Shown piece by piece: positions 2,377-5,714 of a stretch of DNA of 64,000 nucleotides. This DNA is from a virus (Duplodnaviria > Caudoviricetes): positions 64,001-128,000 of IMG/VR virus record IMGVR_UViG_3300032334_001433, one strand, 5' to 3'. A program made the position numbers and the translations under genes. Numbering within the stretch: position 1 is the stretch's first letter; each line of letters begins with the position of its first letter. The notes beneath the pieces were generated by a model that saw only the letters and a list, made by a program, of their open reading frames with translations, was not told the origin of the DNA and searched no databases.

Positions 2377-2405
2377 TTGACATTTTTCTAAATTTCTGTT
2401 ATAAT
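2377..2405 (+). promoter_or_regulatory. Sigma70-type early/middle promoter
   Basis: TTGACA (2377-2382), 17-nt spacer, extended TGtTATAAT (-10 at 2400-2405). Confidence 0.8.
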
Positions 2406-2425: not shown

Positions 2426-2722
2426 ATGAAAAAACTACTTTTTCTAGCAATTTTTGCATTCACAGTTTTGGCAAATGCTCAATGGCACCACAGACATTGG
2501 GAGCCAAGGACAGTTATTGTTGAACGCAGTGATTGGGTAGCACCACTAATTATCGGTGGTATTGCCGGCGCAGTAATTGCAAACCAAAATCAACCACAAC
2601 CTGTGGTTGTTCAACAGCAACCAGTAATTGTACAACAACCTCAAACCGTTTGTACTGACTGGAAAGAAATTCAAACACCTGATGGCAAAATTTATCGCGA
2701 AAGAAATTGCTATCAACGATAA
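2426..2722 (+). CDS. Small exported protein with glycine-zipper-like segment
   Basis: AGGAG RBS; signal peptide MKKLLFLAIFAFTVLANA; hydrophobic PLIIGGIAGAVIA; Q/P/V-rich linker; C-terminal Cys pair. Confidence 0.7.
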   Translation: MKKLLFLAIFAFTVLANAQWHHRHWEPRTVIVERSDWVAPLIIGGIAGAVIANQNQPQPVVVQQQPVIVQQPQTVCTDWKEIQTPDGKIYRERNCYQR

Positions 2723-2744: not shown

Positions 2745-3143
2745 ACACGGCTAGGCTGTGCAATTAGACAAGATCCCGCTTCTTAGTGGGTACGGGAGGG
2801 CAGATCTCCCTAAGTATATTTTTATTGCTGTATGAAGCAAAGAGAAAAGTGTTCTGGACGCGGGTTCGACTCCCGCCAGGTCCACCATAAAGAGTATTGT
2901 TCGCACCAAATAATAGCGAAAAAAATAGTGGCGTAGTTCCGGACTATGGATCATTAGCAGTATTCTTTATAATGGGCCTGCCCTGGTTTCGACAGAGCAA
3001 AGAGTAACAGAGTGGACAGCACATCAGCAACGATGTAAAAAGAAGAAAAACCGTAAACGCAAACGACGAATTGTTCGCATTAGCAGCCTAAACACTGCTT
3101 AGGGTTTCGGTAGGTTTCCTCGTAACAGAATAACCTACCAATA
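2745..3143 (+). ncRNA. ssrA: Circularly permuted (two-piece) tmRNA gene; outer boundaries approximate
   Basis: T-arm GCGGG-TTCGACT-CCCGC (2860-2876), acceptor 3' strand CAGGTCC-A-CCA (2877-2887), 86-nt spacer, then 5' strand GGGCCTG (2974-2980) giving a 7-bp stem with G3.U70. Tag frame GCA AAC GAC GAA TTG TTC GCA TTA GCA GCC TAA (3059-3091) encodes ANDELFALAA. Helix agcag/ctgct encloses the stop codon. Confidence 0.92.
3109..3143 (+). repeat. Hairpin element copy 1 (GGTAGGTT...AACCTACCAATAT)
   Basis: 8-bp stem 3109-3116/3132-3139; near-identical arms recur at 3615-3653. Confidence 0.7.
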
Positions 3144-3165
3144 TGTTTAACAACAGGAGAAAATT

Positions 3166-3603
3166 TTGATTAAAAAACTTGTACTTGTAGCAGCACTCAT
3201 CGGTGCAGCAACTGTAGCACAATCTACAGAAGTTGGTATCAATGGTGGTACTAACATTAGCTCAAGCGAAAATGTTTGGGGCGTAACTATCGGTCGTAAG
3301 ATCGGTTTTGCGGATGTAACCGGTGGCTTTACTCGCAATATTTCATCAGACACATATAGTGTCGGTACTTACAAAACTCTTACAAAAATTGGTCCAGTAT
3401 CAGTTGCAGTAAAAGGAAGTGGTGCATTTGTTGATAACAAAGTTGATCCAGATGGATATGCAGTAATTGTCGGCGCAGGTGCTTCAGTGCCTTTGGCAAA
3501 TAAGCTATCCGCTACTGTAGACTATTCCTATCAAGCAGGCCAAGATGTTATCAAAGCACAAAATGGTAGCAGAATTACTGCAGGTGTAAAACTTAGTTTC
3601 TAA
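3166..3603 (+). CDS. Small outer-membrane beta-barrel protein (Ail/Lom/OmpA-barrel-like)
   Basis: AGGAG RBS with TTG start; signal peptide; alternating hydrophobic beta-strands; C-terminal GVKLSF beta-signal. Confidence 0.7.
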   Translation: MIKKLVLVAALIGAATVAQSTEVGINGGTNISSSENVWGVTIGRKIGFADVTGGFTRNISSDTYSVGTYKTLTKIGPVSVAVKGSGAFVDNKVDPDGYAVIVGAGASVPLANKLSATVDYSYQAGQDVIKAQNGSRITAGVKLSF

Positions 3604-3671: not shown

Positions 3672-4202
3672 ATGAAAACTTATACAAAACCATTTCTATT
3701 ATTTCTATCCACACTATTATTGATAACAGTATTTGTTCAAGTAACAACAGAAAAATTAAATAATTTAAGAGAATCAAAGTTTAAGGATAGTGATATAACC
3801 GTCGCCGTAAGGGAACAACAATTAGATTGCCTGGCACATAATATTTACTATGAAGCAGCAACAGAACCATTTGAGGGCAAAGTTGCAGTTGCTCAAGTAA
3901 CACTTAATAGAGCAGCATCTAGCAAATTTCCAAATGATATTTGCAAGGTAGTATATCAACGCAATATTATTTACGATAAAGTAATTTGTCAATTTAGTTG
4001 GTACTGCGAGACTTCTGCAAAAGCAAAACCAATTTATGCCGCAGCATATAAAGAATCATACGAAGTCGCAAAGAAAGTTCTTTTAGAAGGATTTAGATTA
4101 AAGAGTCTAAATGATGCCATGTATTATCATGCCTCATACGTGTCTCCTAATTGGAATAAACAACAAATTGCAAAAATTGGCAACCATATCTTTTACAAAT
4201 AA
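3672..4202 (+). CDS. SleB-like cell wall hydrolase (Hydrolase_2)
   Basis: N-terminal TM/signal; CLAHNIYYEA, GKVAVAQVTLNR, CQFSW, YYHASYVSPNW and IGNHIFY motifs. Confidence 0.9.
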   Translation: MKTYTKPFLLFLSTLLLITVFVQVTTEKLNNLRESKFKDSDITVAVREQQLDCLAHNIYYEAATEPFEGKVAVAQVTLNRAASSKFPNDICKVVYQRNIIYDKVICQFSWYCETSAKAKPIYAAAYKESYEVAKKVLLEGFRLKSLNDAMYYHASYVSPNWNKQQIAKIGNHIFYK

Positions 4203-4515: not shown

Positions 4516-5040
4516 ATGAGTCTAAAAGATCTAACCCATGCAAAACATAAAGAAGCAGAAACGCAACCGTTTATTAAAGCTATCTTTAAAAAATCAGTAA
4601 CAAGAGAAGAATACGCAGATTACTTATTTCAACTTGGTTTTATATACCATGTATTGGAAGAAGATGTCGGAAACAAATTTGGCTTATTTAACGATATGCC
4701 GGAATTGAAACGATCATCGTATATTAGAGATGACATTAATGAGCTTACCACTCCTACAACTTTATATTCGCCTAAAAAATCTACAGTAGATTATGTAAAT
4801 TATTTACTTGGTATAGACAATGCACAAGATGCAATGGCCCATGTATATGTTCGTCATATGGGAGATTTATTTGGTGGCCAGGCTCTTGCAAAACTTGTGC
4901 CTGGTTCTGGAAAAATGTACAAGTTTGAGAATAAAGAAGAATTAATTAGTAAAGTTAGATCTAAACTAGTTATTGAAATGGCAGACGAAGCAAACATTGC
5001 ATTTGACCACAATATTAATATGGTTAAGGAATATAATTAA
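4516..5040 (+). CDS. hemO: Heme oxygenase (HemO/Ho1-like)
   Basis: Proximal His in THAKHKEAE; AHVYVRHMGDLFGGQ distal-helix signature. Confidence 0.9.
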   Translation: MSLKDLTHAKHKEAETQPFIKAIFKKSVTREEYADYLFQLGFIYHVLEEDVGNKFGLFNDMPELKRSSYIRDDINELTTPTTLYSPKKSTVDYVNYLLGIDNAQDAMAHVYVRHMGDLFGGQALAKLVPGSGKMYKFENKEELISKVRSKLVIEMADEANIAFDHNINMVKEYN

Positions 5041-5714
5041 TGTCTATGGTGTGGGATAAGATGATTCCATTATCGGAATCAATTATTGATAGATTCAAAG
5101 AGTGTGATATTTTACCAATAGATAGTAAATATGAACATTCCGATATTGATTTCACTTGGAAAAATTATCTATTCAAATCTAATAAATTTCGTCGAGCACA
5201 TATCGAAATTGTAGATGCCAGAGAATCTAAAAAGATGTGGGTTATGCACATGACAATATTTCCACATCTAAATGATCCTGCACCAATATTTGGTTTTGAT
5301 GTAGTTTGTGGCGCAAATAAGATTACTGGTGCATTCCATGATTTTTCTAAATCTGGCGACAGTGAAATTTATAATTGGTATCAAGATAAAATGTCTTCTA
5401 TAAATTGGAGCAAACCAAGAGAATTGCCAGATTGGGCAAAACGTATTTTTAGTCCAATGATGCTTGCGGCAGGAAATGTTAGTACAGAAGAAGAATTGGA
5501 CAAATTAATTGCTGTTGCTATAGACAATCTAGACTATTACCTTTATAATGTAGGAAATGAAAGCGAAGATAATAGTTATGTTGAGGCATATAACAACTAT
5601 TGTAGCAATCAAAAGTTAAATCATCACACACTAGCAATGATGGTTAATTTAGGTGTAGACGAGACCAATTTTAAAAACTTTATGGATGAAATTTTATTTC
5701 CAGAAATTAAATGA
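5040..5714 (+). CDS. pcyX: Ferredoxin-dependent bilin reductase (PcyX/PcyA-like)
   Basis: FRRAHIE, HMTIFP, PIFGFDVV, GAFHDFS and RELPDWAKRIFSP match the FDBR family; translationally coupled to the heme oxygenase. Confidence 0.8.
   Translation: MSMVWDKMIPLSESIIDRFKECDILPIDSKYEHSDIDFTWKNYLFKSNKFRRAHIEIVDARESKKMWVMHMTIFPHLNDPAPIFGFDVVCGANKITGAFHDFSKSGDSEIYNWYQDKMSSINWSKPRELPDWAKRIFSPMMLAAGNVSTEEELDKLIAVAIDNLDYYLYNVGNESEDNSYVEAYNNYCSNQKLNHHTLAMMVNLGVDETNFKNFMDEILFPEIK

Follow-up and report, generated by a model that had tools for sequence, protein, structure and literature searches.

Does this T4-like phage carry a tmRNA gene of its own in circularly permuted order and, if so, of which subtype, to what effect and of what descent? 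The window analysed here (64,000 nucleotides) represents bases 64,001-128,000 of a complete viral record, which comprises 202,665 bp, has direct terminal repeats and is rated 100% complete. A first-pass annotation had proposed a phage-encoded, circularly permuted tmRNA, and this proposal is upheld by ARAGORN and by the Rfam models RF04321 and RF01850. For the window and the full-length genome alike, ARAGORN detects a single tmRNA gene, labelled permuted, with the tag ANDELFALAA. The absence of a second half nearby, which had been noted before, thus extends to the entire phage. The RF04321 model (tmRNA_permuted) is matched with 129.5 bits at 2826-3091 (model positions 1-213, curated cut-off 47 bits). 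The RF01850 model (beta_tmRNA) is matched with 118.8 bits at 2774-3149 in a full-length fit (model positions 1-331, curated cut-off 84 bits). The Rfam E-values, 5e-25 and 1.5e-35, are far beyond chance. On the phage genome, the alpha model RF01849 reached 38.9 bits, under its cut-off of 50, and the cyano model RF01851 reached 40.8 bits, under its cut-off of 70, with the tRNA domain alone aligned. Since the beta model is passed over its full length and the other two are not, the gene is of the betaproteobacterial structural type, in agreement with the earlier reading of its tag as beta-like rather than alpha- or cyano-like.

In the gene, the 3' tRNA-like half comes first and the 5' half second, the order that defines membership of RF04321. 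The acceptor stem, CCA end, G3·U70 pair, P2 pairings and tag frame that the first-pass annotation had listed were all recovered at the same positions. The locus and its immediate neighbours are made up as follows.

2377..2405, + strand: candidate early promoter, TTGACA-17-TATAAT with an upstream TG (consensus scan, 12/12 matches; putative function)
2426..2722, + strand: orf98, small ORF directly upstream of the tmRNA (ORF list)
2826..2887, + strand: acceptor piece (RF04321 and RF01850 alignments, ARAGORN 3' tRNA domain, P2 covariation)
2826-2831 with 3016-3021, + strand: P2 outer helix, tgctgt/acagca (sequence, Rfam)
2850-2856 with 2993-2999, + strand: P2 inner helix, tgttctg/cagagca (sequence, Rfam)
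2860-2876, + strand: T arm, GCGGG-UUCGACU-CCCGC (sequence, Rfam, ARAGORN)
2877-2883, + strand: acceptor 3' strand CAGGUCC, which pairs with GGGCCUG at 2974-2980
2884, then 2885-2887, + strand: discriminator A73 (A2884), followed by CCA (sequence, Rfam, ARAGORN)
2888..2973, + strand: intervening spacer of 86 nt, predicted to be removed from the precursor
2974..3149, + strand: coding piece (the Rfam alignment ends at 3149; ARAGORN 5' tRNA domain and tag; covariation)
2974-2980, + strand: acceptor 5' strand GGGCCUG, with G2976·U2881 as G3·U70, the alanine identity pair
2981-2992, + strand: D-loop analogue CCCUGGUUUCGA, which co-varies with the T-loop
3022-3035, + strand: post-P2 hairpin (Rfam alignment, covariation)
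3059..3091, + strand: tag ORF, ANDELFALAA and stop (ARAGORN)
3109-3116 with 3132-3139, + strand: post-tag hairpin (Rfam alignment, covariation)
3166..3603, + strand: orf145, small secreted beta-barrel of the YfaZ/opacity type (Pfam YfaZ, 23.6 bits, cut-off 23)

The tag frame reads GCA AAC GAC GAA TTG TTC GCA TTA GCA GCC TAA. As required of a tmRNA, it opens with an alanine resume codon, encodes a hydrophobic C-terminal degron and closes with a stop codon. According to the Rfam alignment, the terminal 9-bp hairpin of RF01850 is deleted in the window's gene, and the middle P2 segment is flagged as non-canonical. As this terminal hairpin is absent, and no terminator-like site occurs on the + strand between the promoter at 2377..2405 and position 3700, the boundary of the coding piece at 3149 is a provisional one. 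The fit to RF01850 is higher in some relatives, with 155.6 bits for L061 and 152.6 bits for L047.

On the evidence of sequence comparison, the helices, the tag and the tRNA-like core are under purifying selection. Among 81 unique cores, all cells of the inner P2 helix (100%) are paired, and two of its positions show four pair types each; in the outer P2 helix, 95% are paired. Compensatory changes occur in P2. When the registers were shifted by 1-3 columns as a control, only 21-68% were paired. The post-P2 hairpin, which was tested by per-sequence folding, its loop lengths being unequal for column-wise comparison, is preserved through variants such as CAUC/GAUG, CGGU/ACCG and CGGC/GCCG. Two relatives, L147 and L148, have flanking genes with 87-93% nucleotide identity to the window, but from the pre-tag to the post-tag segment the identity is 98.6-100%, with the tag itself at 100%. 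The changes in the T-stem and the hairpin between the window and L147 are compensatory doubles. In L151, with flanks of 61-73% identity, the tag carries two substitutions, both synonymous. The region after the tag, through the ribosome-binding site of orf145, is 96-100% conserved.

The D-loop segment and the T-loop change together. Among the matches listed, a D-loop segment ending in GG occurs with the T-loop UUCGACU in 105 of 108 contigs, and one ending in AG with the T-loop UGCGAAU in 70 of 71. Such covariation would be expected if the two halves, on separate mature RNAs, share one tRNA-like fold. It is support rather than proof, since each class may derive from a single event. Each of the two alleles of the tRNA-like domain (UUCGACU/GG and UGCGAAU/AG) is represented by at least 120 viral contigs. 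A G instead of a U at T-loop position 55 is unusual for such a domain. The window and L147 (L147:3690-3870) are near-identical outside 2860-3036, and differ in T arm, spacer, D-loop and hairpin. Since the differences are confined to this block, they suggest that co-occurring phages recombine their tRNA-like cores, each swapped as a unit. The spikes in depth, 10- to 300-fold, at the conserved segments are consistent with such exchange.

With respect to the tag, many relatives (L012, L013, L031, L048 and others of L004-L123) have seemingly conserved versions that are much longer, with 23-32 residues, such as ANADTFDFSAMSFTGNTVSGKSKVALAA, ANASTFEYFTVEGFTADNGLVAA and AKANTFEYFQVPVTLATANDAEFAIAA. 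These look like an N-terminal extension (AxAxTFxF/Y...) placed before a canonical end of the ANDxxFALAA type. In L123, the long-tag sequence apparently comes straight after the inner P2 strand, with outer P2 strand and hairpin both missing.

The spacer behaves quite differently from the segments that flank it. Its identity to the L147 spacer is 55%, with indels, whereas the flanks are 87-100% identical. Across the family, the spacers are hypervariable and unrelated in sequence, with lengths from 4 to 491 nt, and yet the spacer ends are joined by a stem in 74 of the 76 unique cases, where shuffled sequences would give 16.5. The window's own spacer (2888-2973) has a minimum free energy of -22.5 kcal/mol (z = -3.7), and the ORF list contains no start-to-stop ORF inside it. 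The spacer of L050 (65% GC) is just 4 nt long. In L151, of which the tag is also ANDELFALAA, the spacer extends over 138 nt (L151:3670-3807) and contains a 41-codon ORF, with its own Shine-Dalgarno sequence, that encodes a small hydrophobic protein.

The genes on either side of the tmRNA probably share its transcript. The promoter consensus is that of sigma-70, and the site could drive orf98, the tmRNA precursor and orf145. A conserved A/T-rich element is present immediately 5' of P2. Orf98 has no Pfam or PHROG match, but it is conserved (92.6% nucleotide identity in L147/L148, 78% amino acid identity in L028). Orf145, of the outer-membrane type with a signal peptide, adjoins the 3' side of the tmRNA in about 12 relatives and may be co-transcribed with it; its 33 homologues found are all metagenomic.

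The carrier is a T4-type phage, as judged from baseplate, portal, scaffold and major head protein genes in the window, together with gp32, gp59 and the gp33 late-transcription coactivator. The locus was found again in freshwater and riverine metagenomes from several studies. The genome encodes 26 tRNA genes for nearly all amino acids, mostly in one cluster outside the window (ARAGORN, genome 150709-170898). No integrase was found in it. A search with PF01668 across the complete phage genome gave no SmpB match, so that the lack of smpB reported for the window holds for the phage as a whole. In the window, a heme oxygenase gene (4516-5040) abuts a gene for a ferredoxin-dependent bilin reductase (5040-5714), and the pair is kept in L147/L148, in a phage without psbA/psbD. 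This pair and the similarity of gp32 raised the idea of a cyanophage and its host, which was rejected: neither psbA nor psbD was found in the genome, the cyanophage ACG-2014f lacks a permuted tmRNA, and the tmRNAs of cyanophages are of the cyano type.

In our view, the locus is very likely an ssrA gene in circularly permuted order, functional and of the beta subtype, that belongs to a lytic freshwater T4-like myovirus. One precursor would be transcribed, probably in an early operon that comprises the 2377-2405 promoter, orf98, the tmRNA and orf145, and the A/T-rich element 5' of P2 could serve as a second start site. In the precursor, the tRNA-like halves would pair across the stem-closed spacer, bringing the CCA end beside G2974. 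Host RNase P would cut 5' of G2974, and host 3'-end processing would shorten the acceptor piece as far as the CCA at 2887, which is encoded in the gene. With the 86-nt spacer discarded, acceptor stem and P2 helices would keep the two RNAs in one complex. Host AlaRS could then charge the two-piece complex via G3·U70 and A73, and the charged complex would enter stalled ribosomes together with host SmpB and EF-Tu. Translation would restart on the tag frame, so that ANDELFALAA is appended, and the ALAA end of the tag would direct the products to ClpXP-type proteases of the host. The phage would probably benefit in that ribosomes stay free as host mRNA and stable RNAs decay in infection, which is consistent with the presence of its own 26 tRNA genes. 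Since the phage has no SmpB, its tmRNA would have to depend on host factors. The general steps applied here to the window's gene are established tmRNA biology (summarised in PMC11915505 and PMC9004378), and it is by analogy with them that we infer transcription, two-piece processing, charging, host-SmpB dependence and phage benefit. Contigs from RNA libraries in public runs matched only the conserved mature-piece regions, with mismatches, and then continued into unlike sequence. They derive from relatives and are therefore uninformative about transcription, processing sites and spacer removal of the window's gene.

Alternatively, the RNA might be a decoy or competitor, which titrates host SmpB or blocks host trans-translation and does not itself tag proteins. 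The lack of SmpB in the phage genome would fit this role, and a phage molecule that consists of a tRNA-like domain only reportedly inhibits tmRNA; the RNA of mycobacteriophage DS6A, of this kind, has been proposed to act as such an inhibitor (PMC4131195, PMC11915505). However, the tag frame, the resume context and the post-tag hairpin are the best-conserved parts of the locus, and the substitutions in the tag are synonymous. A pure decoy would have no need of a conserved tag region, which counts against this alternative and makes it quite improbable.

Still less probable is a recently captured host gene, or the remnant of an attachment site, that is of no use to the phage. It is true that tmRNA genes are frequent integration targets and that fragments of them are found in prophages (PMC9004378). 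The gene in the window, however, is complete, resides in a T4-like virus in which no integrase was found, and occupies a conserved slot in many related phages, under purifying selection. Moreover, the exact 3' half, sought among 185,579 species genomes, was present in no permuted gene and in just 11 one-piece tmRNAs, all unrelated, from MAGs of Bacteroidota, Verrucomicrobiota and Geobacteraceae. It follows that the phage family is not a recent capture from a sequenced species.

The permuted order itself recurs widely. The relatives L147 and L148, each from another lake sample, are syntenic with the window throughout and have the permuted gene and the tag in the same form, and the more distant L151, from a third other sample, shares the permuted order and the tag. 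The exact 32-nt 3' half is present in at least 120 IMG/VR contigs, and the second allele in at least 120 more. Among the matches listed, ARAGORN labels the gene as permuted in nearly all contigs in which it is not cut by the contig end. In run X3, from another study, a variant occurs whose spacer is missing 70 nt. An assembly or chimera artefact that turned a one-piece gene into permuted order, for which the first-pass annotation had allowed, has next to no likelihood and is effectively excluded: the assembly graph does break at the conserved tmRNA segments, where depth rises as described, but this happens because many relatives share them, and a unitig of run X1 matches 2863-3026 exactly and bridges CCA, spacer and 5' half, the order is identical in the three samples just mentioned, and the architecture recurs in at least 240 viral contigs as well as in several finished genomes of cultured phages.

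The functional two-piece tmRNA that we favour has precedents. Phage tmRNAs have long been on record (PMC4131195, PMC7162821). Buchholz et al. (2022) described the two-piece tmRNA of the Methylophilales (OM43) phage Melnitz; among 18,146 public phage genomes, 53 unique two-piece tmRNAs are reported, 50 of them from marine or aquatic samples, and Mendera, Moby, YB07 and several cyanophages are given as permuted (PMC9004378). The tmRNA of the Stenotrophomonas phage Marzo has been likened to the 'Betaproteobacter-class' (PMC8928761). As permuted phage tmRNAs and their beta class had both been published, the first-pass annotation overrated the novelty of the find. Two-piece phage tmRNAs, including the beta subtype, are already on record, and the window's gene is a new example.

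According to the major capsid protein, the nearest cultured relatives, which have two-piece tmRNAs on record (PMC9004378), are Melnitz (67% identity) and the Pelagibacter phages Mosig (66%) and HTVC008M (62.5%); T4-like cyanophages have about 60-64% identity. Melnitz and Mosig likewise have a permuted tmRNA between a PD-(D/E)XK exonuclease gene and the gp33/gp59/gp32 genes. In both, however, it is of the alpha subtype. Melnitz scores 106.7 bits on RF01849 and 25 on the beta model, opposite to the window's gene, and Mosig scores 67.6 bits on RF01849 and 50.7 on the beta model. On the 3' side of the Melnitz tmRNA lies a glutamine riboswitch, whereas Rfam finds none in the window. Finally, Melnitz, Mosig and HTVC008M are marine, and the window's phage is from freshwater.

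The Stenotrophomonas and Xanthomonas phages Mendera, Moby, YB07, Marzo, JGB6 and QDWS359 all have tmRNA genes that ARAGORN calls permuted, like the one in the window. Mendera (92.1 bits) and the Xanthomonas phage JGB6 (94.7 bits) are above the RF01850 cut-off, and QDWS359 is above cut-off on RF04321 only (108.7 bits). Over 66 nt, the genes of these phages are about 80-84% identical to the window's gene. Mendera and its kin are also T4-like and have many tRNA genes, as the window's phage does. In contrast, their tags (VAANDDSYTVRIAA, VTANDSYFEVALAA, ANDSVYAQAIAA) differ from ANDELFALAA, the tmRNA of Mendera lies amid tRNA genes, outside the exonuclease-gp33 slot, and the phages are high-GC phages of Xanthomonadales. 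Permuted tmRNAs also occur in T4-like cyanophages, which belong to the same Kyanoviridae-like virus group as the window's phage. Those of S-SSM7 (109.4 bits on RF01851) and S-CRM01 (74.3 bits) belong to the cyano subtype, with long tags in cyanobacterial style. In several GenBank phage records (ON331942.1, OQ436456.1, MN098328.1 and others), the beta-type tmRNA is unannotated, entered as tRNA-OTHER, or overlapped by a CDS, namely an opposite-strand 'hypothetical protein'. A spurious minus-strand ORF of similar kind runs across 2751-2954 of the window.

The two-piece tmRNA of Betaproteobacteria was reportedly described by Sharkady and Williams in 2004. The bacterial genes of RF01850 have much in common with the window's gene, including permutation point, tRNA-like domain, P2 layout, post-P2 hairpin, a tag of the ANDxxFALAA type and the post-tag hairpin. 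The window's gene differs in being virus-borne without SmpB, in addition to the missing terminal hairpin and the non-canonical middle P2 segment. With respect to its origin, the first-pass annotation had offered capture from such a host or independent permutation in phages. Descent from the beta lineage appears to fit better than independent permutation within phages, since the gene fits RF01850 from end to end but neither the alpha nor the cyano model. What is new here is the presence of the beta subtype in the exonuclease-gp33 slot, which in Melnitz and Mosig is held by the alpha subtype. The shared slot may be either an insertion hot spot or a site of cassette exchange.

A more far-reaching reading, which we regard as unlikely, is that the 'betaproteobacterial' two-piece tmRNA is largely a phage-borne lineage. 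It is suggested by the spread of the gene over freshwater viral contigs, several hundred or more in number and from more than one phage type, and over phages of Xanthomonadales, and by the conserved 3' half that has no permuted bacterial counterpart among the 185,579 species genomes. Xanthomonadales hosts probably have a one-piece tmRNA. If this reading were true, alpha, beta and other cassettes would be swapped into a fixed slot when a phage changes its host, and the tRNA-like core would be recombined among co-infecting phages. In its strongest form, the bacterial beta lineage itself would have originated from a phage gene.

The window's phage adds another well-supported case of a large phage with RNAs for the maintenance of translation, here a tmRNA and 26 tRNA genes. 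In public phage records, the permuted tmRNA is often overlooked or hidden by a spurious CDS on the opposite strand. The large and diverse viral family provides natural covariation data on the two-piece fold, including the contact between D-loop and T-loop. All three permuted tmRNA subtypes are carried by one clade of T4-like aquatic phages. Since alpha and beta types are found in one and the same slot, the tmRNA subtype may mark the host class of uncultured phages.
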